Of a stretch of DNA of 32,000 nt, positions 7,665-32,000 are shown one piece after another. The DNA comes from Crocosphaera subtropica ATCC 51142 (GTDB lineage Bacteria > Cyanobacteriota > Cyanobacteriia > Cyanobacteriales > Microcystaceae): assembly GCF_000017845.1 (NCBI RefSeq), contig NC_010547.1, positions 270,001-302,000 of the forward strand. The letters are read 5' to 3'. The notes under the pieces are model-generated. The model was not told where the DNA came from. It searched no databases and was given only the letters and a program-made list of their open reading frames with translations. Both the position numbers and the translations under genes were made by a program. Within the stretch, counting starts at the first letter, position 1. Every line of letters starts with the position of its first letter.

Positions 7665-8220
7665 TAGGGAATGGCGATATAGTAATAAAATTATTATCAG
7701 AAAGTTTTTGATAATTTTGTACCCAATGATCATAAGGGGTTTTTTCAGAACCAGAAACGATAATATTTTGTTTTAACCTCACTCCTTTGAGAGATGAACC
7801 CTGGCACGGAATAGAAGCTCTAATGATATATTCCTGGTTTCTATTTAGTTCAGGAAGTTGATAATTTAAACGCCCTTCAGTTAAGATAATACGTTGATTT
7901 TGTCCAATAATTGTTCTGTTGTCTTTGGTGGTTATGGTAATTTTTATCTTCTGTGGTTTTCTCAATTGAGCAACTTCAAGAACAACAAAAGGTTGTTCTT
8001 GACTGGTATTTATATTATCTGTTTGGGCAACCCCGATCAAGGACAATTGTGGTAAATAATTGGGGCAACCTCTTGAAGTTTCCCCTTGGGTATTTTCAGG
8101 AGATTCTTCTTTTGGCGGTTCCCAAGCTGTTGCTTTAGGCATATTCAAGTTGCTCAAACTTAGAAATACTATCAGGTTGATAAAAAAGTTTTTCGATAAA
8201 ATCAAACCCATAAATATCAT
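7657..8220 (-). CDS. DUF928-like exported protein
   Basis: It has a signal-peptide-like N-terminus. PPKEESPENTQGETSRGC follows, then a beta-rich body ending in a second Cys (IRASIPCQG). This matches my memory of the DUF928 pattern (PP..G.P....G.sRG.C). Confidence 0.65.
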   Translation of the reverse strand: MIFMGLILSKNFFINLIVFLSLSNLNMPKATAWEPPKEESPENTQGETSRGCPNYLPQLSLIGVAQTDNINTSQEQPFVVLEVAQLRKPQKIKITITTKDNRTIIGQNQRIILTEGRLNYQLPELNRNQEYIIRASIPCQGSSLKGVRLKQNIIVSGSEKTPYDHWVQNYQKLSDNNFITISPFPSE

Positions 8221-10273
8221 GTATTTATTTCTACTTTCAAAATCCTGTATTTTCTTGATCTACTTACTTAGCTTAGGATATTTTACCCCGTTTGTTACCG
8301 CTTATCCTTCAATTTCTGAAAATTTACGTCAATTTTACCTATACATTAACAATGGAGATTATAACCAAGCTGCAAAAACCATAGAAGAACTATCCGATTC
8401 ATCTATGAAATTAGCTCTGAGTGCAGACCTAGCTTACTATCAAGGGCAATATGATGAGGCAATTGCCTTATATGAAGAAGCTAGTCAGACTCTTGATTCT
8501 CAGAAAATTCTCTTAAATTGGAGCAAAGCATTATATCAACGGGGACGTTTTTACGAAAATTTAAACGTTGACGAGGGTAACTTTGATTTAATTCAACTGA
8601 GTGAAACCGATTTTTCTCTAGCGTCATCTAAAATAGCTCAATTACTAAACAACAATTCTTCTGATTACCTAGAAGCTCGGTTACTGGCAGCTAAACTTAA
8701 TAAAGATGATTTAACAGTAGACTTGGAAGCGATAGAGAAAGATATTTTATCCTTAGAAAACTCCAACAGAAAAATTCGTTTTTTACTAGACTTAGCTGAG
8801 ATATCTCCTAAATCTAAGATATGGAAACAAGCTTTTTCTCTGGCTATCCAATTAGATAATTTACAATATCAATCTTTAGCCCAAGGTAATTTGGGAGAGA
8901 ATTATTTACAAAAGAATGCTCCACAAGCTGCATTAAAGTCGGCATGGTTGGCTCAATTAGCAGCTTCGAGAATCCAGGATTGGCAATCTTTGATTCGATG
9001 GCATTATTTGGCGGCGAGATCCTTTCAGCAGTTAGAAGACCAGGATTCCGCTATTGCTCAATATAAATTAGCTGTTGCCACTATTAAAAAATTGAGACAA
9101 CAGTTAAGTGGGAACCCGATTTCTCCTCACTTATATTTCGATGTGGTTAAACCTGTTCTTAATGATTATTTACAGTTGCTTCTTTCTCTTTCTTCTCCTC
9201 CCTTAGAAGAAGTTATTTCTCTTCAGCAGTTAGATCAGTTAGGGCAATTAGATAATTATTTCCAAGTTATTTGTCAATTCGACCTTGACACTCCTCAGAA
9301 ATTAATAGAAAAGACAGAAGCTCGCATTTTTTTTGTTGAGCTTGATGAGTCTATTCATGCTATTTTGCAACTGTCCGACTCCTTACGACATTATCCATTA
9401 GCCATTGAGCCAGAGTTGTTACGATCGCAGGTCAGAGAGTGGAGAGTTGAGCTAATGAACGGAGATTTTGATTCGTCTTTTGAATTGAGTTCGATTCTGT
9501 ATAGAACAATTTTAGCTCCCTTAATGCCTATCTTAAAAGCTAATGACATTGAACATTTACAGTTAATCTCCAATGGCGTTCTCAGAACCATTCCAATAGC
9601 TGCCTTAAACGATGGGGAAAAATATTTAATAGAACATTTTGCCCTGAGTTATAGTTTAGGTCTTCGTAACAGAGTGTCTCCTTCGCTACAAAGAGATTTT
9701 TTACCCTTGATTGCCGGACTGACTCGCTCAACTCCTAATTTTCCAAACAAACTTGAATTTGCTCAAAGAGAAGCTCGTCAAGTGCAAACTTTACTAGGAG
9801 GAACCATTTTACTCAATGATGGGTTTTCTGCCGAGTCCCTGAAAACGCAATTACAAGATTCTCGTTACCAAATATTGCATTTAGCTACCCATGCTAGTTT
9901 CTCTTTTGTCCGTGAGCGAGCCTTTATTGAAACGGGAACTCAGACGATTTCTTTGAACCAGTTTGAGTCAATTCTCAAACAACGACGTTCTCCTCTACAA
10001 TTACTGGTTTTAAGTGCTTGTCAGACTGCCATAGGCGATCGCTATTCAGCGTTAGGTTTATTAGGAGTAGGATTAAGGAATAATATTGACGTTGTTGTAG
10101 GGTCATTCTGGGAAGTGGGGGATAGCAACACTTCTCAACAGATGAAGCAGTTTTATAAATTTTGGCAACAAGGATCTTCTTTGCCTGAAGCATTACGCCA
10201 AGTCCAATTAGGGTTAATTCGAGAAGGAGAACTTCCTGCTGATTGGGCTGGTTTTATTGTTGCTTTTAATTAG
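8219..10273 (+). CDS. TPR-repeat / CHAT-domain (caspase-like) protease, probably exported
   Basis: The hydrophobic N-terminus MYLFLLSKSCIFLIYLLSLGYF is followed by about 400 aa of TPR-like helical repeats. The C-terminal CHAT domain has a His/Cys dyad context: ILHLATHASF (His codon 9890-9892) and LLVLSACQTA (Cys codon 10019-10021). The track start at 8060 lies inside the DUF928 gene, so I use the ATG at 8219. Confidence 0.85.
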   Translation: MYLFLLSKSCIFLIYLLSLGYFTPFVTAYPSISENLRQFYLYINNGDYNQAAKTIEELSDSSMKLALSADLAYYQGQYDEAIALYEEASQTLDSQKILLNWSKALYQRGRFYENLNVDEGNFDLIQLSETDFSLASSKIAQLLNNNSSDYLEARLLAAKLNKDDLTVDLEAIEKDILSLENSNRKIRFLLDLAEISPKSKIWKQAFSLAIQLDNLQYQSLAQGNLGENYLQKNAPQAALKSAWLAQLAASRIQDWQSLIRWHYLAARSFQQLEDQDSAIAQYKLAVATIKKLRQQLSGNPISPHLYFDVVKPVLNDYLQLLLSLSSPPLEEVISLQQLDQLGQLDNYFQVICQFDLDTPQKLIEKTEARIFFVELDESIHAILQLSDSLRHYPLAIEPELLRSQVREWRVELMNGDFDSSFELSSILYRTILAPLMPILKANDIEHLQLISNGVLRTIPIAALNDGEKYLIEHFALSYSLGLRNRVSPSLQRDFLPLIAGLTRSTPNFPNKLEFAQREARQVQTLLGGTILLNDGFSAESLKTQLQDSRYQILHLATHASFSFVRERAFIETGTQTISLNQFESILKQRRSPLQLLVLSACQTAIGDRYSALGLLGVGLRNNIDVVVGSFWEVGDSNTSQQMKQFYKFWQQGSSLPEALRQVQLGLIREGELPADWAGFIVAFN

Positions 10274-10311
10274 GAATGGTAAAATTTCTCTTTAGGTGTG
10301 AAGAGTTGGTT

Positions 10312-11010
10312 ATGGATTTAGATTGTAAGTTAAAAAACTGGGAAAATTTTTGTCAGCATCAATTAGGTGATTGGTACGGGACTTGGAGGTTTTATTCAGG
10401 TAACGGAGAGTTTCTTAAATCTTTTCGATGTATTAGAAGTTTTCGCTCTTCTAATGATGAGCAAGTTCAACATCAAAACCATTATTTCTACGAAGATGGT
10501 CAAGAAAAAACGGAAACTTTTGGTCCTTATATTAAACCTGAAATGAGAGGAACTTACTTGAAAAATAGTTTCTCTTGGGGAGTCAAACATCTGAGGGATA
10601 ATTTCTTTTTTGAAACCGGCTTTAGCCATGAAAATAAACGAGCCAGTTTGGTAGCTATCTATGAAAATAGAGTATTGAGACAAGTGATCGCTATTGTGGA
10701 AAATAAGGATGAATTTAAGGAGTCTCTCCCCTTGGAAATGCCTTCAAAATTAGAAGGGAAAAGTCAATCTATCACTACTGATTTAGTTATATCAGAAGAA
10801 AAAAGGCAGGTTTGGCATCCTTTATCTGATAATCTGACTTTATCTTTTCAGGGTAATCTTTTTTTGACTTGTCCTCAAGAACTCACCTCTGATTCCTTTA
10901 ACTTAACCGTAGATTGGTTAGCGATGCCTAGTTTACTCTATCGAGGCATCCGTTCGTTTGATGCTTCCCAATTTAAGGAATTTACTTTACAAACTTTTAC
11001 GACTTTTTAA
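10312..11010 (+). CDS. DUF3598-like protein
   Basis: The N-terminus KLKNWENFCQHQLGDWYGTWRFYSGNGEF ... VQHQNHYFYEDGQ matches the remembered DUF3598 opening (W..F....G.W.GsF ... H.N.Y). There is no signal peptide. An alternative ATG lies at 10276. Confidence 0.55.
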   Translation: MDLDCKLKNWENFCQHQLGDWYGTWRFYSGNGEFLKSFRCIRSFRSSNDEQVQHQNHYFYEDGQEKTETFGPYIKPEMRGTYLKNSFSWGVKHLRDNFFFETGFSHENKRASLVAIYENRVLRQVIAIVENKDEFKESLPLEMPSKLEGKSQSITTDLVISEEKRQVWHPLSDNLTLSFQGNLFLTCPQELTSDSFNLTVDWLAMPSLLYRGIRSFDASQFKEFTLQTFTTF

Positions 11011-11013
11011 GGA

Positions 11014-13722
11014 ATGAAACAAGCTAGAAACGCTTTTCTTATAACAGTTAGTATCTTAATCTCTTCTACTTCTATAGAAGCTCAAATCGTTCCTGATGCT
11101 TCTTTATCTAATCCTTCCACGGTGTCTTCTCAAGATAAACTGATGATTATTGAAGGTGGCACACAGCAAGGAAATAATTTATTCCATAGTTTTGAGCAAT
11201 TTTCAGTGCCAAGTGGCTTTGAGGTGTTGTTTAATAATCGATCTGCCATTCAAAATATTTTTACTAGGGTAACAGGGGCGAATTTATCATTAATCGATGG
11301 ATTAATTAGAGCTAATGGAACAGCCAATTTATTTTTGATTAATCCCAATGGCATTCAATTGGGAACGAATGCCTCTTTAGATGTTGGTGGTTCTTTTATT
11401 ATTAGTACCGCCAATAGTATTAGATTTGCAGATGGCTATGAATTTAGTGCCAGTAACCCTGATTCATTATTAAGTGTCAGTGTCCCTATCGGTTTAACGT
11501 TGAACAATCCTGGTTCAATTAAAATGCGAGGCATCGGACATAATTTAGGTGGGCTAACGAATCCTTTTGTTCCTGTGATCAAAGATCCTGTTCCCTCCGG
11601 CTTAGCTACAAAACCAGGGAATACTTTAGCTTTAATTGGAGGTGAAGTTTATTTAGATGGGGGTGTTCTCAGCGCCGACTCTGGGCAAATTGAAGTGGGT
11701 GGTGTCGCTAGTGGCTTTGTGAAAATCGAACAGAGCGCACAGGGGTGGACTTTTAATTACCAAGCTATTTCTAATTACAATGACATACAAGTCGCGAATA
11801 AATCTTTATTAGATGCTAGTGGGGCTAGTCGTGGATCTATCCAAGTACAAGGTAAAAATATTAGTCTCAAAGATGGCTCGATGTTTTTGATCCAAAATCA
11901 AGGGGAGCAATCTTCTAGTCTGATTAAGATCGTGGCTTCGGAAGCGTTATCCTTAAGTGGAGAAATTGATAATAGATTTTCTTCGACTATTATTAGTGAA
12001 ACCTTCAGTTCAGGAGACGGACCAGATATTACCATTCGAGCCAAGGATATAACGATTCGAGACGGTGGCACTATCAGACCTAAAAGCTATTCTCAAGGTC
12101 GCAGTGGGGATCTCAATATTACCGCAGCCAACTCTCTCAATGTTATTGGAGTAGCCCCTCGTAGCCCCCGTGCAGCCAGTAGTGCTAATACTAGCAATAC
12201 TAATCTAGGCAGTTCAGGGAACACTATAATTATTGCACCTCAATTGAATCTTCGAGATGCGGGATTTGTTGGTAGTGTCTCCTTAGGCCGAGGGGATGCT
12301 GGAACAGTTAAAGTAGAGAGCGATACCATTCATATCCAGGGTGGTAGTTCTGTCCAATCAGAAAGTTCTATCTCTGCAACCAGTTTTTCTCAAGGCAATG
12401 CAGGAACTATTGAGATTAAAACCAAACGTCTGTTTTTAGAAGATGATGCTAATGTTAACGCTGCGACTCTGGGATTTGGGGCCGCCGGAACTATTGAGAT
12501 TCAAGCTGACGAATTAATTGAAATCAAGCCGAATAGTGGCATCATTGCTTCGGTTGTTAATTCCACTGTGGGGGGAGAGCAAGATATTTTCGGTACTCCT
12601 ATAGAATCTACAGGCTCTTCAGGTAATATTTCAATTGAGACTCAATTTCTGAAAATTACCGGAGATAATAGTCAAATTGGTGTCTCTAACCAAGGGTTAG
12701 AAGAAAATGCAGGGCTTCTTACCATTAATGCTGAGTCCATTATTCTCGAAAATCGCGCTAGGCTTAATGCTGATGCTCAGTTTGGGGTCGGAGGGAATAT
12801 TTTTGTTAACACTAAAGATTTTTTAATTACAGAAAAAAGCCGTGTATCTGCTACCTCTGTGGGGGTAGGAAATGGAGGCAATATTCTTATCGACGCTGAC
12901 AATTTGTCTATGTTTGAAGATGGGATTATTACGGCTGAAACCATTGAAGGTTCTGGGGGTAATATCAATTTAGAAGGTGGCACTGTTTTACTACAGTTTG
13001 GGGAAATAAAAGCTTCAACCAAAACAGGAAGTGGTGGAAATATTAGCACCAATTTACAACAATTAAGGGTCGAAAATGATAGTCTCATTGAAGCTTCTGT
13101 AGAAGATTCAGGAATAGGAGGAACTCTAAATATTGTTGCGAATGTCATTTCCCTCAATAATGACAGCCAAATCAAGGCCACCAGTCAATCTGGGTCTGGA
13201 GGGAATATTAATTTTCAAACCTCTACCTTAAAGCTATTAGATAATAGTCAGGTGACTACATCCGCTCAAGATGGGGATGGCGGTAATATTAATTTCACCA
13301 GTGACTTTTTATTCCTGTTAGATAATACTAAAGTTATTGCTAATGCCTTTACAGGAAATGGAGGCAATATAACCATTACCGCCCAAGAAATTTTTAGATC
13401 CCCTGAAAATATCATTTCCGCTTCTTCTGAATTAGGTATCGATGGAACGGTGAGAATTAATACCACTCCTTTTGAAGTGAACCCTCAACCTTTAAAAATT
13501 TCTTTAAGGGAGTCTGAAGACGAAACTAATCCCTTTGAAGTTTGTAATCAAGTCAATACCCGTTTTTCAGTACAAGGCTCTGGAGGCTCATTACCTTCTC
13601 CTTCCTCTCAACTAGAAACTTATACCGTTGAGGATTTAATTCCTTACGGCCAAGCAGTTAGTCTTCAACAAAATGATCAAGGAGACTGGGAGTTATTAAG
13701 CTGTAATGACTTGAAACAGTAG
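11014..13722 (+). CDS. Filamentous-haemagglutinin-like exoprotein (TpsA) with an N-terminal TPS secretion domain
   Basis: A signal peptide is followed by a TPS domain: GNNLFHSFEQFSV, NIFTRVTG, ANLFLINPNGI (NPNG at 11341-11352). The body is a long beta-helix with recurring G(S/N/D)GGNI(N/S/T) units at roughly nt 12780-13390. The C-terminus contains a Cys pair. Confidence 0.9.
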   Translation: MKQARNAFLITVSILISSTSIEAQIVPDASLSNPSTVSSQDKLMIIEGGTQQGNNLFHSFEQFSVPSGFEVLFNNRSAIQNIFTRVTGANLSLIDGLIRANGTANLFLINPNGIQLGTNASLDVGGSFIISTANSIRFADGYEFSASNPDSLLSVSVPIGLTLNNPGSIKMRGIGHNLGGLTNPFVPVIKDPVPSGLATKPGNTLALIGGEVYLDGGVLSADSGQIEVGGVASGFVKIEQSAQGWTFNYQAISNYNDIQVANKSLLDASGASRGSIQVQGKNISLKDGSMFLIQNQGEQSSSLIKIVASEALSLSGEIDNRFSSTIISETFSSGDGPDITIRAKDITIRDGGTIRPKSYSQGRSGDLNITAANSLNVIGVAPRSPRAASSANTSNTNLGSSGNTIIIAPQLNLRDAGFVGSVSLGRGDAGTVKVESDTIHIQGGSSVQSESSISATSFSQGNAGTIEIKTKRLFLEDDANVNAATLGFGAAGTIEIQADELIEIKPNSGIIASVVNSTVGGEQDIFGTPIESTGSSGNISIETQFLKITGDNSQIGVSNQGLEENAGLLTINAESIILENRARLNADAQFGVGGNIFVNTKDFLITEKSRVSATSVGVGNGGNILIDADNLSMFEDGIITAETIEGSGGNINLEGGTVLLQFGEIKASTKTGSGGNISTNLQQLRVENDSLIEASVEDSGIGGTLNIVANVISLNNDSQIKATSQSGSGGNINFQTSTLKLLDNSQVTTSAQDGDGGNINFTSDFLFLLDNTKVIANAFTGNGGNITITAQEIFRSPENIISASSELGIDGTVRINTTPFEVNPQPLKISLRESEDETNPFEVCNQVNTRFSVQGSGGSLPSPSSQLETYTVEDLIPYGQAVSLQQNDQGDWELLSCNDLKQ

Positions 13723-13779: not shown

Positions 13780-15090
13780 CTAAAATTTTAAGACTCCTTC
13801 GACAGAAAACGTTACTTCATTTAATTGATTAGTATCTGTCGGAGCAACAGCATTAAGCGGCGCACCTACATCTAATCCTACTCGTAGAGAATTCCACTCA
13901 AATCTTAGCCCAACTCCTGTGCTAACCAATGTTCTTGTGGGTAATATATCTTCTAATGATCCCCACACCTGACCATAATCAACGAATCCTAAAACTTGGA
14001 GTGCAGTAGATTCTTGTTGTAATAGAGAATATCTGAGTTCTAAGGTTCCAGCAATGCAATTATCATCGCTCACAAAGTTGGTTCCGTATCCTCGAACTGT
14101 ATTGCCAAAAATAAAAACGTTCCCATTTTTCCCTCCTAATGCACATCTTTCACCTCCAGGTTGCCGATGAGGGGATAAGTGAAGGGCAAATCGTCCGTAT
14201 AACTGTAAATGATCTGTAAGAGCTTTGATGACTTGCCCTTGAGCTTTCCAACTAAAAAAAGTGGGATCAATCTCTTCAGAGGAACCTCCTATGGAAAAAG
14301 TTGATGAGCCGAAAATAACTTGTCCAGGAATGATCTCAGAATATGTCGCTCCTATTCGCCCTACTGTAAGTTGGGGGTCTGAAAATAGTCGCCTGTTTAA
14401 TACTCTTCCCCTACTTTCTCTACGTTCGAGTTTGAAGTCTATGGTCAGGGAACGATTAGCAGTTTTTATCAAATACTGATTATAACCAACAGAGGCGGTA
14501 AAAGCTTCATTTTTTACGTTGAAGGGTTCTAAATTTCCCTCTACGATCTCTGAATCGCTTTCTTGATAAGCAAATTCTAAACTGCTATCATTCGGAGCAA
14601 ATTCATGTCGGTACACAGCTAAAAACCTTTGTAGCCCCTCTGTTTCTTTATATAAGAATCTGACACTGTCTCCATGCCAAATGTTTTGATTTAATAGTTC
14701 AACTTCAACCCCATCATCTCCAATTAGAGGATTTTCAAAATTATTAATCGTCGTCCTTATCTGCCATGAAGGCGATTCTAGGACGTTTACCGTCAGGATA
14801 CTTTGTCCTATTCGACCTGTTTGTGATAGATTTGCATCTATTTCCGATAATTTCGGATTTTGAGACAGAATTTTTAGTCTCTCTAAAAGAATATTTTGAT
14901 TAAAAGGCGGACCGAGAAACGGCTTGATTCTAGCTGCTACATATTGTTTGAGGTTTTCAGTCCCCTTGATTTCCAGTTGGACTTCTCCTTCAATCGCCTT
15001 ATAATAAACAACCCCTTGAGTAATCTTTTGAGATTCTAACAAGACTATTGAGTTAACATATCCTGCATCAACATAGGCTTGAGTTAACAA
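13780..15090 (-). CDS. ShlB/FhaC/HecB-family TpsB outer-membrane transporter, 5'-truncated (probable pseudogene)
   Basis: The ORF begins at a TTG inside POTRA1 (LTQAYVDAGYVNSIVLLESQKITQGVVYYKAIEGEV) and continues through POTRA2 and the beta-barrel, ending in F. The signal peptide, N-terminal helix and most of POTRA1 are missing. An in-frame stop lies at 15124-15126, and no frame is open in 15125-15275. Confidence 0.75.
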   Translation of the reverse strand: MLTQAYVDAGYVNSIVLLESQKITQGVVYYKAIEGEVQLEIKGTENLKQYVAARIKPFLGPPFNQNILLERLKILSQNPKLSEIDANLSQTGRIGQSILTVNVLESPSWQIRTTINNFENPLIGDDGVEVELLNQNIWHGDSVRFLYKETEGLQRFLAVYRHEFAPNDSSLEFAYQESDSEIVEGNLEPFNVKNEAFTASVGYNQYLIKTANRSLTIDFKLERRESRGRVLNRRLFSDPQLTVGRIGATYSEIIPGQVIFGSSTFSIGGSSEEIDPTFFSWKAQGQVIKALTDHLQLYGRFALHLSPHRQPGGERCALGGKNGNVFIFGNTVRGYGTNFVSDDNCIAGTLELRYSLLQQESTALQVLGFVDYGQVWGSLEDILPTRTLVSTGVGLRFEWNSLRVGLDVGAPLNAVAPTDTNQLNEVTFSVEGVLKF

Positions 15091-20517: not shown

Positions 20518-20895
20518 TTGGGAGGAATAATTACTTTTTTCGCTCTAATAACAGAATTTATCCGAAAAAGTGAAAAAGGGGATTTTTATGCTCCTGGGGA
20601 CTTTGATGCTCCTGGGGACTTTGATGCTCCTGGGGACTTTGATGATCGGCAATTCGACTTTCTACATTCTTCTTTTTTGATAATTGGATGTATTCTATGG
20701 ACAGGATTTAGTTATTATCAAGAAGTCATAGGCAAAAAAAATTGTCAGATTCATTTTGTTTTAAATGATTCAATTTTTTTCATAGTCACTGTTATACTCT
20801 TAGGCTTTTTTTATATTTTGTCTAGTATCCTTTTAGGCTATTGCGCTATAGCTTTTTGGAGGGAACTTTTAGAAGTTGATTTATCTAATGATTAA
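20518..20895 (+). CDS. Hypothetical membrane protein with an (APGDFD)x3 repeat loop
   Basis: It has a TTG start, and the true start is uncertain. TM segments flank the repeat GDFYAPGDFDAPGDFDAPGDFDD. Confidence 0.45.
   Translation: MGGIITFFALITEFIRKSEKGDFYAPGDFDAPGDFDAPGDFDDRQFDFLHSSFLIIGCILWTGFSYYQEVIGKKNCQIHFVLNDSIFFIVTVILLGFFYILSSILLGYCAIAFWRELLEVDLSND
20590..20643 (+). repeat. Perfect 18-nt tandem repeat x3 (gctcctggggactttgat)
   Basis: Three exact consecutive copies occupy 20590-20607, 20608-20625 and 20626-20643. A diverged partial copy (ggggatttttat) precedes them. Confidence 0.95.
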
Positions 20896-23242: not shown

Positions 23243-26200
23243 ATGAATTACAAAATAGAAGAAAAACATTTCACCGAATGGGTACATGGTTCCGGTGTTG
23301 ATCCCCAAATTGTGGGATTAAATGTGCGATCGCTCTCAGGAACCACACCACATGAGCATTTACTTTACTCAGACAAATTACCCAGACGAAACGATGGGAG
23401 GTTATCAACCGGATACTTGCGTCGCTGCGAACATTGGGAATTAGGGGGGTGGTACTGTAATGGAATTGACTTGCTAACCGGTGATGAATCTTTATGGGGG
23501 TGCTTTAAGCCGAATAAGCCAAGAATAGTCACGAAAAACGATGGCTTTGACCCCGATCCCTCTGAACGTAAACAAAAACCTATCAAATATGAACATCCCC
23601 CAAAAGTTCAGACAGAAATATTTGCCCTAAGAGTGCCGAGGGCGATCGCAGAGGCCATCGCAGATCGATACAATATACCAATCCCAGAAGAAACAGAATT
23701 TTGGCAGTGGCTGATAGATCATCCTGAAATCCCCATTGTTATTACAGAAGGGGCTAAGAAAGCAGGGGCGTTATTGAGTGCCGGACGTTGTGCGATCGCC
23801 TTCCCTGGAATCTACAACGGGTATCGGCAACCCAAGGACGAAGATGGTAAGAAAACAGGGAAAGCTTACCTCATCCCTCAGTTGCAAGTGTTGGCCCAAC
23901 CCGGAAGAGAGTTTTATTTTGGGTTTGACTCTGATAATAAAATTAAGACCATTACCAATGTGAACAAGGCGATCGAGAAAACAGCTTTTCTCTTAGAAGA
24001 ACAGGGTTGTACTTGTAAGGTTATTGAGTGGTCTAATGAACACAAAGGGGTCGATGACTTAATCGTGGCTAAAGGAGTAGAAGCTTTTGATCAAGCCTAT
24101 CAAAAAGCTAAGTCTATATCTCTATGGAAAGTTAGTCGATTAAAACAGTTAACTTACTCAGTAGCTGTCGAAATAGATCCTCACCTACGTTACTTACCCA
24201 AGTTAGAAATTCCTCAAGGCGTAAAACTGATTGGACTCAAAGCCAGGAAAGGACGGGGGAAAACTTATAGCATCGAGGATGAGGTGGCACAAGCTATCCA
24301 TGATGGGAGAAGGGTGTTAGTGTTATCCCACCGACGGCAACTGGTGGCCTCGTTGTGCGATCGCTTCGGATTAGATAACGTCAACGGTTATCAGACCAGT
24401 GAAACCGGTGGGAAATTGGGTTACGGGTTATGCACCGACTCTCTACGCCAAGACTCGCAAGCTAGGTTTAGACCCCATGAGTGGATAGATGCACTGGTTA
24501 TTATTGATGAGGTCGAACAGGTGCTATGGCACACTTTGGCAGCCCATACCAAAGTTAAGGATTATCGAGTAGAAATCCTCAGAAATTTACAACAAGTTAT
24601 CGAGGTGGTTCTGGGTTCCGAACGGGGACAAGTGTTAGTAGCTGATGCAGATTTGAGTGATGTCAGTCTCGATTATATTAGAAGCTTAGTAGATAATCCC
24701 CCCGAACCCTACATCATTCACCAAGGTTACAACGCCACTACCATCACATCGGAAGAGAAATGGCAGATTTACAACTACGATCACACCAACCCGAAGCGTT
24801 TACTTGCAGACTTACTTGAACATATAAGACGAGGGGGTAAACCGTTTATCTGTGTATCGGCACAGAAAAGAAAAAGCCAATTTGGAACCATTAACCTTGA
24901 GACGATGCTCCTCGAATATTTTCCTTCTCTAAGGATACTAAGAATCGATAGTGAAACGATTACTACACCCGAACATCCGGCTTATGGTTGCATTGAACGA
25001 CTTGATGAAGTGTTGCCTCATTACGATGTAGTCCTTTCATCCCCCTCCATCGAAACCGGTGTCAGTGTTGACCATGAATACCTCAATCCAGTCACCAGTC
25101 AAACCTCGCCAGTCACCAGTAATGAGATAGAAGTTAAACCGAATCTTTCAGTGTTGCAGTTTTTTTTGATGGCAATGATAAAATCAGTTACCAGTCACCA
25201 GTTACCAGTCACCAGTGAAAGACAGTTGACAGTTACTAATGAGCAATCAGAGATTAATAATTCTCGTACTTTAGCTAAGGGTGAAGATGAGAAAACAAAA
25301 CTGGTAAGGAGTGACTGTTCATTGGTGAGTGTCAAATTAGCGATCGCTCTTTGTTGGTTATCTTTGGCCCCGGAACCGATCATAGAAGATTTACCCCCCA
25401 GTGAGTTCGTCGGGCAAAAGGATGAAGAAGCGAAACATCTGGGCCATCACCTCAAACAACTTTCGGTAGATAACTGTGGGGTTTACCATCGTCGGGTGAG
25501 TGATGCTGAAACATTAAGCGATCGCGCCTTTGAAGAATTAAAGCGTCGCCAAACTCGAAGCACTGAAGAACGACTGCAACTGCACAAGACAGAAATTTGC
25601 CGGAAATATGAAGTCAAAGACGTTTCTCCTGAATTAGTCAAATTGGATGAACAACGAGTGTACGCTCGTATGAGACTGCATTACTATGGGACTGTGGGAC
25701 GGGCTTATATGAAGCAGAAGGAGAGAAAAAGATTAGAAAAAATGTTGCAACTGGGGCAAGGTTGTTTGTTCTCTCCCGACTTTAATCGTAATAGTATTTC
25801 CGCTAAGATTTGGGTTTACGAATTCCTTGGCTTCTTTCCTTTGCTACAAAAAACCCAGGTTCACAAAGATGACCCCGATTTGCAACAATTAGCCACAGTA
25901 TCAAAAGAATTTGCCCATGATATCAAGTCTATTTTGCACGTAAGCATCAACCTTGACGACAGCCCTGTAGTGGTTTATCGCAAGTTACGCCAACCTCTGG
26001 GGCTTCCCAAGTTGATTAAGTTGGGTAGGTTTGGGTCAAGAGGCGATCGTCATTATACTTATGCGAATCCAGACCTCACTGAACGGTACGAATTGTTTGA
26101 TCGGTGGTTGGCATCGGAACAACCCTTACCTACTGAACAGCCATCACCGGTGCAATGGGCGATGAGGATGCTACACCGACTAGAATCTCCTGCACGGAGT

Positions 26201-26344
26201 TTTGTTGATAGCACTGAAGCTAACAAGTTTCTACAGGCGATCGATTCTAAATTAACTTCTGTTGTTGATGAAGTTGAAAAGGTTTGTTCTGATTTTTGCC
26301 CTCGATTTTGGGAAGCTTTTCGTTTAGCTATTTCTGAAGTCTAG
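23243..26344 (+). CDS. Plasmid replication protein of the cyanobacterial CyRepA/DUF3854 type (TOPRIM primase-like domain plus P-loop NTPase)
   Basis: TOPRIM-like motifs are IVITEGAKKAGALLSAGRCAIAFPGIYNG, FYFGFDSDNK and HKGVDDLIV. Walker A is KARKGRGKTY (about 24248-24268) and Walker B is LVIIDEVEQV. The long helical C-terminus follows. Confidence 0.75.
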   Translation: MNYKIEEKHFTEWVHGSGVDPQIVGLNVRSLSGTTPHEHLLYSDKLPRRNDGRLSTGYLRRCEHWELGGWYCNGIDLLTGDESLWGCFKPNKPRIVTKNDGFDPDPSERKQKPIKYEHPPKVQTEIFALRVPRAIAEAIADRYNIPIPEETEFWQWLIDHPEIPIVITEGAKKAGALLSAGRCAIAFPGIYNGYRQPKDEDGKKTGKAYLIPQLQVLAQPGREFYFGFDSDNKIKTITNVNKAIEKTAFLLEEQGCTCKVIEWSNEHKGVDDLIVAKGVEAFDQAYQKAKSISLWKVSRLKQLTYSVAVEIDPHLRYLPKLEIPQGVKLIGLKARKGRGKTYSIEDEVAQAIHDGRRVLVLSHRRQLVASLCDRFGLDNVNGYQTSETGGKLGYGLCTDSLRQDSQARFRPHEWIDALVIIDEVEQVLWHTLAAHTKVKDYRVEILRNLQQVIEVVLGSERGQVLVADADLSDVSLDYIRSLVDNPPEPYIIHQGYNATTITSEEKWQIYNYDHTNPKRLLADLLEHIRRGGKPFICVSAQKRKSQFGTINLETMLLEYFPSLRILRIDSETITTPEHPAYGCIERLDEVLPHYDVVLSSPSIETGVSVDHEYLNPVTSQTSPVTSNEIEVKPNLSVLQFFLMAMIKSVTSHQLPVTSERQLTVTNEQSEINNSRTLAKGEDEKTKLVRSDCSLVSVKLAIALCWLSLAPEPIIEDLPPSEFVGQKDEEAKHLGHHLKQLSVDNCGVYHRRVSDAETLSDRAFEELKRRQTRSTEERLQLHKTEICRKYEVKDVSPELVKLDEQRVYARMRLHYYGTVGRAYMKQKERKRLEKMLQLGQGCLFSPDFNRNSISAKIWVYEFLGFFPLLQKTQVHKDDPDLQQLATVSKEFAHDIKSILHVSINLDDSPVVVYRKLRQPLGLPKLIKLGRFGSRGDRHYTYANPDLTERYELFDRWLASEQPLPTEQPSPVQWAMRMLHRLESPARSFVDSTEANKFLQAIDSKLTSVVDEVEKVCSDFCPRFWEAFRLAISEV
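25185..25217 (+). repeat. Heptanucleotide (STRR-like) tandem repeat CAGTNAC inside the rep ORF
   Basis: The sequence cagttac cagtcac cagttac cagtcac cagtg runs from 25185 to 25217. Related copies ccagtcaccagt lie at 25088-25099 and 25109-25120, and cagttgacagttac at about 25223-25236. Confidence 0.8.
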
Positions 26345-26411
26345 TCTAAGTATTCTATATTTCTATATTAGATTTAATAGACACAAACTGTTACTGATTA
26401 TACTAAATACT

Positions 26412-26460
26412 CCTATTAAGAGAACGAGCAAGGTTCTTGATAGATTAATAGGTCTTTTTA
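26412..26460 (+). terminator. Long hairpin plus T-tract after the rep gene
   Basis: cctattaa (26412-26419) pairs with ttaatagg (26445-26452). There is an inner agaac/gttct stem, followed by tcttttta. Confidence 0.5.
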
Positions 26461-26530
26461 TACTGCTTATAGACTAAATTATTAGAGTATTTTGTAGTAA
26501 AATATAAGAAAAAATTTCCACAATTTAACT

Positions 26531-26755
26531 ATGACAAATTGCAAGTTTTCTAACATTGAGTTTCAAGTTAATAATACAATAAAGACCTCATTTTCTTTTG
26601 ATGAGCTTCATCGATTAAACAGTGAGAAGCTAGATTATCTCAAAGGCTCACTTTTAACTTGTTTGGTAACTACAGGACATATTAGTCAAGATTTAGCCCG
26701 CTCCTTTTATCAAGATATATTAACCAAAAATCAGGCACCAGTTAAAATTATGTAG
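26531..26755 (+). CDS. Hypothetical protein
   Basis: The 74-aa ORF has an ATG start. I recognise no family. Confidence 0.4.
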   Translation: MTNCKFSNIEFQVNNTIKTSFSFDELHRLNSEKLDYLKGSLLTCLVTTGHISQDLARSFYQDILTKNQAPVKIM

Positions 26756-26764
26756 GTAAGTGAA

Positions 26765-27229
26765 ATGAATATATTAAAAATAGTATTTATCAATAAAAAC
26801 AACCTACGAAATGTTTTATTTCTGTTTATATTTTTTGCTGTTGGAGGAGGATTATTCTGGGTTTTAAAGACTTCAGAAACTCAGAAAATTCCAGATAGTT
26901 GCTATCTTTCCCCTTTAGCAATTACAATCGAAGTCGTTCGACAAAACTACTCTGATTGTAAAACTGATATCCAATCTTTAGAAGCTGATATTAATTTTGA
27001 AAAAACTGATCAAAAAATCTCAAAATTAACTACTCAATTAAAGCCAAAAGAACAGCTAACTTTGAGAACAGAAAAAGTGGTTGAGAGTATTTTTCAAGAA
27101 ATTAGAGATGATATTTCTTCCGAACCAATATTAAATATTATAATATTTAGTATTTGTCTCATCTTATTTTTTCTATGGTGTCTTTGTTTTATGTTTTTAT
27201 TAATTTTCTTTATTTTTGTAGACATTTAA
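26765..27229 (+). CDS. Hypothetical membrane protein (TM helices at both ends)
   Basis: The hydrophobic segments are VLFLFIFFAVGGGLFWVL and IIIFSICLILFFLWCLCFMFLLIFFIFV. Confidence 0.5.
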   Translation: MNILKIVFINKNNLRNVLFLFIFFAVGGGLFWVLKTSETQKIPDSCYLSPLAITIEVVRQNYSDCKTDIQSLEADINFEKTDQKISKLTTQLKPKEQLTLRTEKVVESIFQEIRDDISSEPILNIIIFSICLILFFLWCLCFMFLLIFFIFVDI

Positions 27230-27412
27230 TTAACTATTAATTATTTTAAAAAGCCATTACACACCAAAACTTATTAATTCAGTTTTGTGATTGCTTTCAC
27301 TGATTTTCTTAGTCATTCTGATTATTTATTAGTTTTTATCTGTTATAGTATATATTGATTTGAGTATCGAGAACGGAGATTCTCATCGTTCTAAACATTC
27401 AGAATTTTCATT

Positions 27413-28708
27413 TTACCCATCGGATAACTCCTCGATAACAAAATTTTCTAAATAAGCGATCGCCTTCAATGAAGCATTAGCTTTAGCATCTTTTTTAGAA
27501 GTTTCAATCGCTTTGGTTTCAATCAAAGGTTCATCCAACCACTCGATTCGACAACAACAAAGCCAATCATTGCTTACTTGATGGTAAAAGTATTCAGGTC
27601 GTTTCATTTTCAGTTTCTGCAATGCTTCATGTAAATAACCGATAGGGGATTCATGGGCCTCTGTTGGTATTTCTGAAAGGTCGATTTCGTCTTCTGTTTC
27701 AGGGATAAATTCATCAGTTACCACCGTCTGGGCTATGTTTGTCTCTGAATGAATATCCTGCAAAGGACTTTGATCAATGAATTCAGGTGGCACTAAACTC
27801 TGATCTAACACCCCTTCTATCAATAAGTAGTTAGCCTGATGTTTGGCGGCTTGTTTATTACTAGCAATGCCAGGAATGGCTGTGGTTTCTCCTTCTAAGA
27901 TAGACCAAAAAGCAAACTTCCCTGATGCCGTTGTCTTTTCGATGTATTCTACGGTTGTTTGATTCGTCGTCCCTGCTATTTGGATAATTTGAGTGGCTTC
28001 TACCTGTTTTTCTTCTAAATAATCTAATATCGTGTCTTTGATTAATTCTTTCGTTTCTGGGTCATTGTACTCCCCAAAGATTAGATAGTATAAATCTACT
28101 GGTTTGATATTACCGTCTTCTATTCGAGAGATGGCTTCGGGTACAATTTTGTCTAACTTTGATACCCTAAGACTATCTTTAACAATTTGGGAAAATTCTT
28201 TATCCGAAAGATTCTCTATCTTGCCCTTATCCCTTAATATGTGTACGGTTTGATTGAGGCGTTTCTCACGGAAATGTTCGTCTCGTTGTTCTTTGACTTG
28301 GGTGCGTTTGCTATTGATGTGGTTAGCGATCGCTTGTAGTTCTTCTAGGGTGTAAGGAGATTCCTTCCCTTCTATGAAAACTGCTTTGAGAATACGGTGG
28401 TTAACGTAGTCAGCTACCCTGCGAATGGGGGAAGTAAAGTGAGTATAGGCTGGTAAAGCTAGGGCAAAGTGACCAATAACTGCCGGAGAGTAAGTAGCAG
28501 GATTTAACCAACTTTGCAACTTCTGTCTCACCAATTCGGGTAATCCGAGTGTCGTCAGAGTTTCTATCAACTCTTTGCTTTTAGGGGCGATCGCACTTGC
28601 AGTATGGTTCCGGTAGAGTATGGGTAAACGATGCTTCTCGGCTAAACTGGCCACTGCGGTATTAGCCAGGAGCATAAATTCTTGAATGATTTGCTGTGAG
28701 TCACGAAC
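27413..28708 (-). pseudogene. RNB-family (RNase II/R-like) exoribonuclease, 3' fragment, separated from its 5' part by the IscB element
   Basis: The frame is open upstream of the listed Met and reads VRDSQQIIQEFMLLANTAVA. This is followed by HFALALPAYTHFTSPIRRVADYVNHRIL, the RNB C-terminal motifs. The C-terminal region has two dsRBD-like modules, one of which is PIGYLHEALQKL...TSKKDAKANASLKAIAYL. Confidence 0.85.
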
Positions 28709-28942
28709 CCACCACTAATCCAGTAGGTATAGTGGGGGCTTGAAAAGCCCAAGACGTGACCAGACTAAGGTTCTAGAAACCTACGTTATTTGAGTCAAGA
28801 CACCTTGAGATGCGTGCCAGTCTCACGCTCTGTCGCTCATCTTTAAACATCCCTAAACGGGTTAAGGAAGTGAGATGGGCCTAACAAGCTCAAATAACAT
28901 TGTCGAGGCAAACTTTACCCTAGAAATAGGAGATTAAAACTA
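28693..28942 (+). ncRNA. Candidate IscB omega RNA (HEARO-type): about 16-nt flank-derived guide plus about 234-nt scaffold
   Basis: This non-coding leader lies between the element boundary (about 28709) and the iscB ATG. The position and size are as expected for an IscB omega RNA. The stems are ccacta/tagtgg (28712-28717/28730-28735), gggctt/aagccc (28736-28741/28745-28750), aggtt/aacct (28768-28772/28778-28782), tcaag/cttga (28794-28798/28804-28808) and a possible long-range ctcac/gtgag. It is GC-richer than typical intergenic DNA in this window. Confidence 0.65.
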
Positions 28943-30289
28943 ATGTTCGTATTCGTATTGTCAAAAGACAAGCGACCACTTAGCCCCTGCCATCAGGCGA
29001 GAGCTAGAAAACTGCTCAAAGAAGGGAAAGCAGCCGTATATCGAAAATACCCCTTCACTATCATCCTCAAAGAAGAGGTGAACCCTAGCAAACCTCAACC
29101 TTGCCGAATTAAGCTTGATCCTGGCGCAAAAGTAACCGGTATTGCCTTAATTCAAGGGGATAGGATGATCTTTGGTGCTGAACTTGAACATAGAGGATTT
29201 AGAATTAAAGACTCACTTGAGTCAAGAAGACAGTTAAGAAGGGGTCGTAGGGGAAGGAAAACCCGCTACCGAAAACCTCGCTTCCTAAATCGGACACGGC
29301 CTAAAGGTTGGCTTCCTCCGTCCTTACAAAGCCGCGTCGAGAACATTAATACTTGGGTTAATCGGTTGAGAAAACTCTGTCCAGTAGACTCGATTAGTGT
29401 TGAACTTGTTCGGTTTGACACTCAGCAGCTTGAAAATCCTGAAATCTCAGGAGTCGAGTACCAGCAAGGAACTCTTTGCGGGTACGAGGTGCGAGAGTAC
29501 CTGCTAGAAAAGTATCATCGGACTTGTCAGTATTGTGGGGCTAAAGAGGTTCCCTTTGAGATAGAGCATATTGTACCTAAATCAAAGGGGGGAAGCGATC
29601 GCGTTTCTAATCTCACTCTAAGTTGCCACAAATGCAACCAGAAGAAAGGAAACCGGTCAGTTGAGGAGTTCCTTAAGGGTAAGCCTGAAGTGCTGAAACG
29701 AGTTAAAGCTAATGCCAAAAAGCCCCTGAGAGATGCTGCTGCGGTGAACGCTGCTCGGTGGGCAGTCTTTAACCGATTAAAGGCTAGTGGACTAGAGGTA
29801 GAGGCTGGTTCAGGAGGACTAACTAAGTTTAATCGAACCAAGCACGAACTCCCTAAGACGCACTGGCTAGATGCAGCTTGTGTGGGCAAATCAACACCAA
29901 GCAAATTACGAATGCTGGTACAGAAGCCACTTAAAATTAAAGCCACTGGTCACGGCACAAGGCAAATGTGCCGCACCAACAAGTATGGGTTCCCAACTCG
30001 TTATGTCCCGCACAAAAAAGATGTTAAAGGATTTCAAACCGGTGACATTGTTAAGGCTGTAGTTACTAAGGGAAAGAAGACCGGCATTTATGTTGGGAGG
30101 GTAGCCGTACGCTCGACTGGGAGTTTTAACATTTCGACTGCAAAAGGCGTAATCCAGGGCATTAATCACAAATATTGCCGACAAATTCACAAGAAGGATG
30201 GTTACTCTTATGCCACATAGCTACTGCCCACCTTTTCCTCTCATCGCTAACCTTTTCGGTATAGCGAGAGTCTCCAAGGAGGAGGAAAG
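28709..30289 (+). mobile_element. IS200/IS605-superfamily non-autonomous element carrying omega RNA and iscB (no tnpA), inserted in the RNB gene
   Basis: The RNB reading frame stops being RNB-like at 28708/28709 and at 30289/30290. Removing 1581 nt (3 x 527) rejoins ...TTPMYH to VRDSQQIIQEFMLLAN in frame. A subterminal hairpin lies in the 69-nt right end (ctctc..cgcta/tagcgagag, about 30238-30270). The boundaries are good to within a few nt. Confidence 0.75.
28943..30220 (+). CDS. iscB: IscB RNA-guided endonuclease (PLMP domain, split RuvC, HNH insert)
   Basis: The N-terminus is MFVFVLSKDKRPLSPCHQARARKLLKEGKAAVYRKYPFTI (PLMP-type). RuvC-I is IKLDPGAKVTGIAL (D59). The Arg-rich bridge helix is RRQLRRGRRGRKTRYRKPRF. 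RuvC-II is ISVELVRFD (E154). The HNH domain is CQYCG...EIEHIVPKSKGGSDRVSNLTLSCHKCNQKKGN (H209). RuvC-III is HWLDAAC (H307, D310). An AGGAG lies 10 nt upstream of the ATG. Confidence 0.92.
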   Translation: MFVFVLSKDKRPLSPCHQARARKLLKEGKAAVYRKYPFTIILKEEVNPSKPQPCRIKLDPGAKVTGIALIQGDRMIFGAELEHRGFRIKDSLESRRQLRRGRRGRKTRYRKPRFLNRTRPKGWLPPSLQSRVENINTWVNRLRKLCPVDSISVELVRFDTQQLENPEISGVEYQQGTLCGYEVREYLLEKYHRTCQYCGAKEVPFEIEHIVPKSKGGSDRVSNLTLSCHKCNQKKGNRSVEEFLKGKPEVLKRVKANAKKPLRDAAAVNAARWAVFNRLKASGLEVEAGSGGLTKFNRTKHELPKTHWLDAACVGKSTPSKLRMLVQKPLKIKATGHGTRQMCRTNKYGFPTRYVPHKKDVKGFQTGDIVKAVVTKGKKTGIYVGRVAVRSTGSFNISTAKGVIQGINHKYCRQIHKKDGYSYAT

Positions 30290-30904
30290 ATGATACATTG
30301 GGGTGGTGAGGATACGCCCCTCTTCATCTAAGTTGACCCCACCGACACGACTTAAACCAATAGCACCGACATCTTGGCGTTTCCAAGCTAATTTTTGCGC
30401 CCAGAGTTCACAATAACGTAGCATTTGGAAAAATGGCGATGAAGGGTCATGAAGAGTAGCATCAGCCGCAGAGTAAGAAAAGCGTTGTAAACTGGTTAAA
30501 TGCGCTAAATGGAGGGAAGTATTTTTGATATTAGCTGATTCATCGAGAGTGATGCGAATTGTCACCGTCAAACGTAATTTATCTTCGAGTAGAGACAGTT
30601 TATCCTCAGAAAGTTCATGGGGAAACATGGGTTTATTCTTCGTGGCCAAGTAGCGAGTTTCCACCTGTGAGAGTGCATTGGCTTCTAAGGAGGAACCTGG
30701 TTGGATTATGGCCGACACATCCGAGATATGCACGGATACCACAGCCCCTGATTGCTTGGGTTCTATCCATAAAGCGTCATCGAGGTCTTTTGACGTTTCG
30801 CCGTCAATCGTAAAACCGAGTACCGCCTCTCGATTAGTTAGGGATATATTATTATCTAGTAATTGTTCTATTTCGCTTCGTATAATTGGTAATGCTTTAG
30901 CCAC
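30290..30904 (-). pseudogene. RNB-family exoribonuclease, 5' fragment (GTG start), interrupted by the IscB element
   Basis: FTIDGETSKDLDDALWIEPKQSGAVVSVHISDVSAII and MFPHELSEDKLSLLEDKLRLTVTI are the N-terminal RNB motifs. After ...TTPMYH the ORF runs 22 codons into element sequence and stops at 30221-30223. No cold-shock/OB domains precede the RNB domain. Confidence 0.85.
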
Positions 30905-31044
30905 TTTTTCTTTCGGTTCGCTAAAATAAACTACTTTTATATTTGATTTTTTTTAGTTACTAAATCTTTTGAATTATTGACTTAGATGGCTAAAACATTA
31001 TAACATATTAATTCGATTAACTGTTACTTATTTTTCTTAATTTA

Positions 31045-31305
31045 ATGAACTGGTATTTAGTATCTTGTCGTCCGAATAAAAGAGATTTGTTCTTAAAGCA
31101 GTTAGATTTTGAAATTGATAAAAATCAACTTGGAGATTTATTTTTAGAGAAAATATCTCCGAGTGATGCGATGTATAAAGATATGGTACTACTCCAAATT
31201 AGTGATCTTTCATCAGCCCGAATCCATCTTAAGAAAATTGAGCAGTTTCAAAAAATAGAAGCAAGGGCTTTATCAGAACGTCAAGTTCAACAATTTTTAG
31301 GATAA
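31045..31305 (+). CDS. Small NusG/RfaH N-terminal (NGN)-like protein without a KOW domain
   Basis: MNWYLVSCRPNKRDLFLKQL resembles the NGN opening (WY.v.c....e......L). A hydrophobic core follows (YKDMVLLQISD). Confidence 0.4.
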   Translation: MNWYLVSCRPNKRDLFLKQLDFEIDKNQLGDLFLEKISPSDAMYKDMVLLQISDLSSARIHLKKIEQFQKIEARALSERQVQQFLG

Positions 31306-31339
31306 CAAAATAAAAACATTCTTATTGCTTGATATTCAC

Positions 31340-31447
31340 TATAGCGTTTCTCGGACTCATGAGGTACACTTAACTCCTGCCTCCTGCCTCCTGCCCCCTG
31401 CCTCAAAGGGATAACCTTTGTACCTCACAAGTATGAGAATTGCTATA
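31340..31447. repeat. MITE-like palindromic element with a central CTCCTGC heptamer repeat
   Basis: The arms are imperfect 29-nt inverted repeats: tatagcgtttctcggactcatgaggtaca (31340-31368) and tgtacctcacaagtatgagaattgctata (31419-31447). The core is ctcctgc ctcctgc ctcctgc cccctgc. It lies between convergent genes. Confidence 0.55.
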
Positions 31448-31471
31448 TTCTAACCTATTAATTTAACTTAA

Positions 31472-31903
31472 TTATTCTTTCAAGTTATTTCTGAATAATT
31501 CCAAAAATTGACTAATAGTTAAAATTGGTATTTTTTCAAATTCTTTTAAAACTAATAAGTCTTTATCTCCAGATATAATTACGTCCACAGGAATTGTTAC
31601 GGCCGTTTCTAAGACAATTTTATCTTGAGGATCTCGTAAGTCGGAAATAGAAGATAAGGGCTTTGGTTGACATAGTAAGGTGATTTTTCTGACTTCTTCT
31701 AATATCTCATCTCTAGTAATTTCTAATTGTGTCAACCTCCGTTCAAGCTTAGCATATTTTAAAGTTTTTTCTAGCTCATCTAATAAAGGAGACGAAATAT
31801 AAATAACAATTTTATTTTGTTGTGCTAACAGAATAATATCTCTGGCTTGTCCACCCCAAAGTAATCCAGAGATCCATATATTAGTATCAAGTAAAACTTT
31901 CAT
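31472..31903 (-). CDS. PIN-domain toxin (PIN_3 / TIGR00305-like)
   Basis: MKVLLDTNIWISGLLWGG ... DPQDKIVLETAV ... VIISGDKDLL carries the conserved acidic residues of PIN nucleases. Its ATG overlaps the upstream ORF stop as ATGA. Confidence 0.85.
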   Translation of the reverse strand: MKVLLDTNIWISGLLWGGQARDIILLAQQNKIVIYISSPLLDELEKTLKYAKLERRLTQLEITRDEILEEVRKITLLCQPKPLSSISDLRDPQDKIVLETAVTIPVDVIISGDKDLLVLKEFEKIPILTISQFLELFRNNLKE

Positions 31904-32000
31904 TTTTGAGTTAAACTATGTCTAACTTCTTTAACCATGCTTGTTATTTTTTCCATTGATGGTTGTGATGGGTCTTCTCCTAACTCATCTATTTTTTCAA
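31900..32000 (-). CDS. Probable cognate antitoxin, 3' end only (continues beyond the window)
   Basis: I translated this frame by hand to the window edge: ...EKIDELGEDPSQPSMEKITSMVKEVRHSLTQK. The stop TGA at 31900-31902 overlaps the PIN start codon. Confidence 0.45.
   Translation of the reverse strand, partial: EKIDELGEDPSQPSMEKITSMVKEVRHSLTQK

Follow-up and report, generated by a model that had tools for sequence, protein, structure and literature searches.

We analysed a 32,000-nucleotide stretch of DNA from the cyanobacterium Crocosphaera subtropica ATCC 51142 (contig NC_010547.1, positions 270,001 to 302,000 of the forward strand; hereafter the window, with all coordinates counted from its first letter). 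It very probably carries an intact, non-autonomous IS200/IS605-type transposon with an OMEGA cargo, i.e. a HEARO RNA scaffold of ∼219 nt followed by a gene for the 425-aa RNA-guided nuclease IscB. The element interrupts an RNB ribonuclease gene, directly 3′ of an ATCAT on the sense strand of that gene, and leaves it in two fragments; a close second copy lies at an unrelated site in Crocosphaera chwakensis CCY0110. That the window copy is also expressed and active we consider probable, at a distinctly lower level of confidence than its identity and anatomy. The features that carry the argument are the following.

28700-30289, plus strand: non-autonomous IS200/IS605-type element, 1590 bp, comprising the omegaRNA, iscB and the end beyond it; as a transposase would read it, 28700 is the right end (RE) and 30289 the left end (LE)
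28684-28699, plus strand: presumed omegaRNA guide (GAATGATTTGCTGTGA), host flank just 5′ of the scaffold
28700-28918, plus strand: omegaRNA scaffold (Rfam HEARO, RF02033), 219 nt, 24 nt before the iscB ATG
28943-30220, plus strand: iscB, 425 aa, ATG start, TAG stop, no internal stop
30221-30289, minus strand (the transposase strand): transposon LE, 69 nt from the end of iscB to the element boundary
30290-30294: target-adjacent motif (TAM), reading ATGAT on the plus strand and, on the transposase strand, ATCAT immediately before the LE; host-gene sequence, outside the element
30290-30904, minus strand: N-terminal fragment of the RNB gene (Pfam RNB, E = 1.5e-33, model positions 9-184)
27413-28699, minus strand: C-terminal fragment of the RNB gene (Pfam RNB, model positions 204-324, E = 2.8e-21; dsrm, E = 1.3e-07)

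The IscB protein

A preliminary description, made from the letters of the window, had proposed an apparently intact IscB gene at 28943-30220. The open reading frame (ORF) and the codons, read directly from the sequence, bear out every coordinate that it gave, with no internal stop and no substitution at a catalytic residue. An AGGAG motif at 28928-28932 lies 10 nt 5′ of the ATG. The encoded protein runs from a PLMP-type motif through RuvC-I (D59), an Arg-rich bridge helix, RuvC-II (E154), an HNH domain (C195, C198, H209, C228, C231, N232) and RuvC-III (H307, D310) to a beta-rich C-terminal region that may be WED/TI-like. The codons of the five putative catalytic residues are GAT at 29117-29119 (D59), GAA at 29402-29404 (E154), CAT at 29567-29569 (H209), CAC at 29861-29863 (H307) and GAT at 29870-29872 (D310).

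By profile, sequence and fold comparison this protein is an IscB, an RNA-guided nuclease of the OMEGA class and of the type ancestral to Cas9. The NCBIfam model NF040563 (guided_IscB), a curated NCBI equivalog named ‘RNA-guided endonuclease IscB’ with a cutoff of 175 bits, matches residues 3-315 along its whole length (model positions 1-314 of 314) at 483.6 bits (E = 2e-145). Pfam RRXRR covers residues 3-176 at 263.8 bits (E = 9e-79; cutoff 25), and Pfam HNH falls on residues 195-238, i.e. in the insert between RuvC-II and RuvC-III. Searching PDB sequences with phmmer gave top matches that were solely IscB, IsrB and Cas9d/Cas9 chains, the solved IscB chains matching at E-values from 2e-47 (TbaIscB) to 1e-27 (1.6e-29 for OgeuIscB).

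The assignment of the individual residues rests on OgeuIscB, in which D61, E193, H340 and D343 are the RuvC catalytic residues, H247 is the catalytic histidine of the HNH domain, and residues 14-17 form the PLMP motif (Kato et al., PMC9640706). Alignment to this protein (7XHT numbering) pairs D59 with D61, E154 with E193, H209 with H247, H307 with H340 and D310 with D343, so that all five residues named as catalytic in the preliminary description fall on catalytic positions. The same description had placed RPLSPC where PLMP would stand; this hexapeptide spans residues 11-16, and its P12-L13-S14-P15 is aligned with P14-L15-M16-P17 of OgeuIscB. Across 51 relatives P12, L13 and P15 are at least 90% conserved while the third position of the motif varies. 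The residues D59, E154, H209, D310 and N232 are invariant in these relatives, as are both Cys pairs expected in the HNH domain (C195, C198, C228 and C231), and H307 is conserved in at least 90% of them.

An AlphaFold2 model built on the alignment of relatives (mean predicted local distance difference test score, pLDDT, 78.3; predicted template modelling score 0.72) allowed the structural comparison that the preliminary description had called for. Its best Foldseek matches are IscB-omegaRNA-DNA complexes (8csz, E = 2e-25, then 9liq, 9k30 and 7xht), followed in rank by IsrB, Cas9d and Cas9. The bridge helix foreseen after RuvC-I corresponds to a modelled helix at residues 85-103 with an Arg-rich stretch after it, between RuvC-I and RuvC-II. 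Sequence alignments end at residues 323-380; the model has six beta-strands at residues 369-424 (pLDDT ∼77-88), and these C-terminal ∼60 residues, as a predicted run of beta-strands, would fit a TAM-interacting beta-barrel. The protein is small (425 aa) and matches Cas9 profiles and structures in part only, in keeping with a nuclease that has no REC lobe. Absence of the HNH domain would have made it an IsrB.

The omegaRNA and the ends of the element

HEARO is the sole Rfam family in the whole window, and its match is both full-length and strong, taking in all 211 model positions at 156.4 bits (gathering score 83; E = 2.3e-33). The family was reportedly first described by the Breaker laboratory in 2009 (as cited by Meers et al.). 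Of 20 related loci, 18 have HEARO in the corresponding position before iscB. Two loci from Hormoscilla metagenome-assembled genomes (L027 and L030) encode IscB relatives that are ∼60% identical to the query, but upstream of them HEARO stays below the Rfam gathering score; a group II intron domain is present at 1553-1629 of L027.

According to Meers et al. (bioRxiv 10.1101/2023.03.14.532601), the transposon RE bounds the HEARO region of such elements, and some structure at the 3′ side of the RNA may be missing from RF02033, so the 3′ end of the omegaRNA is at 28918 or later. On the 5′ side the scaffold opens with GTCA. Nineteen copies vary in the base before it, which sets the RE-side boundary at 28700, and the sequence directly 5′ of the scaffold is wholly different among these copies. 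IscB omegaRNAs bear a 5′ guide (PMC9640706); for the presumed guide at 28684-28699 a length of 16 nt was assumed by analogy.

The LE contains an imperfect hairpin, in which 30240-30249 pairs with 30262-30270 and A30243 is bulged. In six related ends this hairpin is 87% paired, as against 35-54% in slid controls, and five of its nine pairs are changed on both sides; the changes are compensatory. Its fold z-score on the single sequence is only about −1.9. The RE region, which overlaps the 5′ stems of the omegaRNA, folds strongly (z-scores −4.1 to −4.6). A repeat search found none that join the two ends; 28700-30289 has no terminal inverted repeats and no target-site duplication.

ATGA follows the end of the element in both close copies (ATGAT in the window, ATGAA in CCY0110), and it marks the point at which similarity ends in every related element examined, diverged relatives included, with unrelated sequence beyond. 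Read on the transposase strand, the motif abutting the LE is ATCAT in the window and TTCAT in CCY0110, i.e. (A/T)TCAT. For GstIscB and its TnpA, experiments have defined the TAM as TTCAT, placed 5′ of the LE (Meers et al.), and ATCAT differs from it by one base. Taken as a whole, 28700-30289 has the standard anatomy of a non-autonomous IS200/IS605-type IscB element.

The interrupted ribonuclease gene

On either side of iscB is a minus-strand ORF fragment that matches the RNB ribonuclease domain. The ORF listed for the N-terminal fragment reads through into the element and stops at 30221-30223, and the frame of the C-terminal fragment extends upstream of its ATG at 28675, as SQQIIQEF, up to 28699. 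When 28700-30289 is removed in silico and the ATGA is kept in the host, the two fragments become a single 633-aa RNB/dsrm ORF, which is gapless across the joint (…EEGRILTTPMYH followed by SQQIIQEFMLLAN…) against the intact RNB ribonuclease on an Acaryochloris marina plasmid. This excision is scarless and keeps the frame. Since it is the retention of ATGA that makes the restored ORF gapless, we assign this motif to the host. Two other excisions were tried and rejected: taking out 1594 nt, with ATGA inside the element, frameshifts the RNB gene, and taking out 1593 nt (28700-30292) preserves the frame but leaves a one-residue gap against the homologue and splits the conserved ATGA.

The restored ORF starts at about residue 156 of the 767-aa Acaryochloris plasmid homologue and is without ∼135 N-terminal residues; its GTG at 30904 is closely preceded by a stop. 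Many plasmids of Acaryochloris carry homologues, and 16 records cover at least 80% of the query. On plasmid pREC3 of Acaryochloris marina MBIC10699 (L081), the intact RNB homologue adjoins a plasmid-borne recA and genes for a RecD-like helicase, a small RNA-binding protein and a reverse-transcriptase-domain protein. Annotation of the Crocosphaera replicon should show the RNB ribonuclease gene as one that an insertion sequence has disrupted.

A second copy and selection between copies

A scan of a genome collection found a 99%-identical IscB (P0001) in C. chwakensis CCY0110 (locus L001). The DNA match is confined to 28699-30293 of the window, comprising 1595 shared bases that are 96.4% identical, and both flanks are unrelated. 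The CCY0110 copy is intergenic and co-oriented with the upstream ORF, whereas the window copy is intragenic and antisense. Three exact matches to an LE 20-mer in the metagenome collection had no other similarity to the element and were set aside as chance matches.

Between the two iscB genes there are 46 synonymous and 6 non-synonymous codon differences, over ∼297 synonymous and ∼978 non-synonymous sites. The pair shows strong purifying selection on IscB between two independent copies, and the earlier view of the nuclease as plausibly active gains support from it. Only 2 of the 219 omegaRNA bases differ, compared with ∼15% at synonymous sites, and only 1 of 73 at the far end (30221-30293). Because these non-coding parts are far better conserved than synonymous sites, selection acts on the RNA and the transposon end besides the protein. 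In the cmscan alignment, one of the two omegaRNA changes turns a U-A pair into U-G and the other breaks the outermost pair of a stem.

Activity of the element and alternative explanations

Several observations weigh against an intact and working element as described here. A search of the genome and metagenome collections found only one other close copy, and the empty RNB site (PMYHSQQIIQEFM, as a degenerate pattern) had no match in the metagenome collection. The boundary could move by one base, and the preference for 1590 over 1593 nt depends on the lack of a gap against a homologue of just 38% identity. The element runs antisense to the interrupted RNB gene, and IscB elements tend to share the orientation of the upstream gene (Meers et al.). 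A promoter/terminator consensus scan of 28300-30500 gave no sigma-70-like promoter 5′ of the omegaRNA and nothing above shuffled expectation, which leaves transcription of the guide unexplained. Finally, a Pfam scan of the 31 window ORFs gave no Y1_Tnp match, so mobility depends on a TnpA from elsewhere.

The last three of these points would equally be expected of an element that is intact and silent or stranded, i.e. one that makes no omegaRNA and has no compatible TnpA, a recent dead-end insertion yet to decay. Both RNB fragments are still open, which suggests that the insertion is indeed recent. We nevertheless regard such a silent copy as rather unlikely. The consensus promoter scan is crude, and cyanobacterial promoters often have no −35 box; the absence of tnpA nearby is the rule, in that ∼98.5% of iscB genes have none and are mobilised in trans (Meers et al.). 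The purifying selection shows that the lineage was functional until recently, although it does not speak for this copy.

Two other explanations have almost nothing to recommend them. The protein could be an HNH or McrA-like restriction endonuclease that works alone and takes no RNA guide, and its HNH domain is real and its relatives are named ‘HNH endonuclease’ or, in the Joint Genome Institute (JGI) labels, ‘5-methylcytosine-specific restriction endonuclease McrA’, but HNH is limited to residues 195-245 with RRXRR/RuvC making up the rest, the fold matches IscB complexes and a full-length HEARO lies directly upstream, so that the Pfam, NF040563, HEARO and Foldseek matches refute this idea. The preliminary description held that annotation typically offers HNH endonuclease and nothing further, which still fits UniRef and is out of date for NCBI, where the 99%-identical protein is called ‘RNA-guided endonuclease IscB’. 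Just as far-fetched is a miniature CRISPR-associated Cas9 (type II-D-like, or a CRISPR-associated IscB) in place of a transposon-borne OMEGA nuclease: weak partial matches to Cas9d/Cas9 profiles and structures are outweighed by a Cas9d profile score of 51.6 bits against a cutoff of 375, by the lack of a CRISPR array or other tandem or direct repeat array nearby and of any Rfam CRISPR repeat in the window, and by the position of the gene within a 1.6-kb mobile unit, another copy of which sits at an unrelated site.

For an expressed and active element, characterised relatives are our basis for inferring that it is transcribed, how long its guide is, that it cleaves DNA, that it requires the motif and that it is still mobile. 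By this analogy, transcription would proceed from the host flank into the element and yield an RNA whose flank-derived 5′ end (∼28684-28699) would serve as the guide. IscB would bind the scaffold and recognise any copy of the uninterrupted site, that is GAATGATTTGCTGTGA followed by ATGAT, where HNH would cut the target strand and RuvC the other strand. The occupied site would escape cutting because its guide match is followed by GTCAC and not by ATGA. If a Y1 transposase (TnpA) supplied from another locus excised the element, repair templated by an occupied copy would restore it; such repair could likewise carry it into empty alleles, which is plausible where a plasmid is multicopy.

If so, a multicopy cyanobacterial plasmid may be subject to a gene drive by this element: the guide matches the intact allele of a plasmid-borne RNB/dsRBD ribonuclease gene, IscB would cut and convert every uninterrupted copy, and a ribonuclease knockout would thereby be fixed on the plasmid. 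Two secondary points go with this proposal. The (T/A)TCAT shared by cyanobacterial and Geobacillus IscB elements would mean that different phyla have retained a single transposase/nuclease specificity, and an IscB of 425 aa that needs only a motif of 4-5 nt could have some use as a compact editor. We offer the gene drive and these two points together as a tentative proposal, possible and on balance doubtful.

Replicon context and neighbouring genes

The preliminary description had taken the iscB copy to be plasmid-borne. The window is plausibly part of a plasmid, as is suggested by the following gene.

23243-26344, plus strand: DUF3854 protein, 1033 aa, ∼36-45% identical to the ‘plasmid replication protein, CyRepA1 family’ found on many cyanobacterial plasmids

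This CyRepA1-family homologue lies 2.6 kb upstream, and an ORF with a ParB-HTH domain lies at the start of the window. The assignment is unproven, in that no PLSDB record matches the window: a megablast of 24000-32000 against PLSDB returned only a 194-bp HEARO match on a Nostoc flagelliforme plasmid. The HIP1 octamer (GCGATCGC) reported within iscB is indeed present at 29595-29602, and the window holds 17 copies where 0.05 would be expected by chance, which marks its DNA as cyanobacterial; six of the 17 lie inside the CyRepA1-like gene. The single octamer in iscB had been read as a sign of long residence in cyanobacteria, for which one site is weak evidence.

Other ORFs in the window form a gene mix that is typical of accessory or plasmid DNA: ParB-HTH (23-460), exonuclease VII large subunit (XseA; 771-1958), a GNAT acetyltransferase (1919-2398), a HicB antitoxin (2373-2690), a tyrosine integrase (3000-4229) and a PIN-domain protein (31472-31903). 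A CHASE2-domain protein (5748-7733, minus strand) is divergent from a TPR-CHAT protease-like protein (8060-10273, plus strand), after which comes a DUF3598 ORF (10276-11010). A 902-aa protein with a TPS secretion domain (11014-13722, plus strand) and a ShlB/FhaC-type transporter (13780-15090, minus strand) look like a two-partner secretion pair. In the transporter, the POTRA_2 match begins at residue 1 with model position 43, which may reflect a wrongly placed ORF start or a truncated gene. Within a 125-aa ORF (20518-20895) that has no Pfam match, an 18-nt unit (GGGGACTTTGATGCTCCT) is repeated in tandem at 20578-20644 (3.7 copies, 95% matches).

Significance and comparison with known systems

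Publications already cover the RNA and protein families, the architecture of the transposon and its mechanism, and the locus is an ordinary, well-preserved member of its kind. At least 8000 proteins match its IscB at E ≤ 1e-10, many of the closest being cyanobacterial. A literature search on cyanobacterial or Crocosphaera IscB returned nothing relevant, and PMC2864571 leaves HEARO unmentioned. For basic discovery the locus carries little weight, given that IscB-omegaRNA elements and their abundance in cyanobacteria are established and that NCBI annotation would name the gene rightly. Its merit is that of a clean textbook case, in which boundaries, guide, adjacent motif and restored host gene can all be read from the sequence. 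Its practical value is modest, namely a compact 425-aa candidate nuclease with a predicted ATGA(N) motif and with guide, target and TAM defined.

Set against the HEARO family (RF02033), the window RNA matches the full model and stands directly upstream of an HNH/RuvC ORF, with no notable difference. OgeuIscB (PDB 7UTN, 7XHT and 8CSZ; PMC9640706) is the best structural match of the window IscB and shares with it the domain order, the D-E-H-D RuvC residues, the HNH histidine, a PLMP-type N-terminus and an omegaRNA scaffold of ∼200 nt with a 5′ guide. The two differ in length (496 aa in OgeuIscB, 425 aa here), and their sequence identity in Foldseek is ∼18-22%; the alignment ends near residue 323 of the query, leaving the C-terminal WED/TI region not alignable by sequence. 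The TAM of OgeuIscB is NWRRNA (PMC12660989), unlike the ATGA(N) predicted here.

GstIscB of Geobacillus stearothermophilus (Meers et al.) differs in host, a member of the Firmicutes as against a cyanobacterium, and its activity and TnpA partner have been shown experimentally. Both elements are non-autonomous and of the IS200/IS605 type, with an RE-bounded, HEARO-like omegaRNA upstream of iscB. The catalytic numbering is close as well (D58/H209/H210 in GstIscB, D59/H209 in the window IscB), which suggests proteins of similar size, and the TTCAT that serves as TAM 5′ of the GstIscB LE recurs in the CCY0110 copy and appears as ATCAT in the window.

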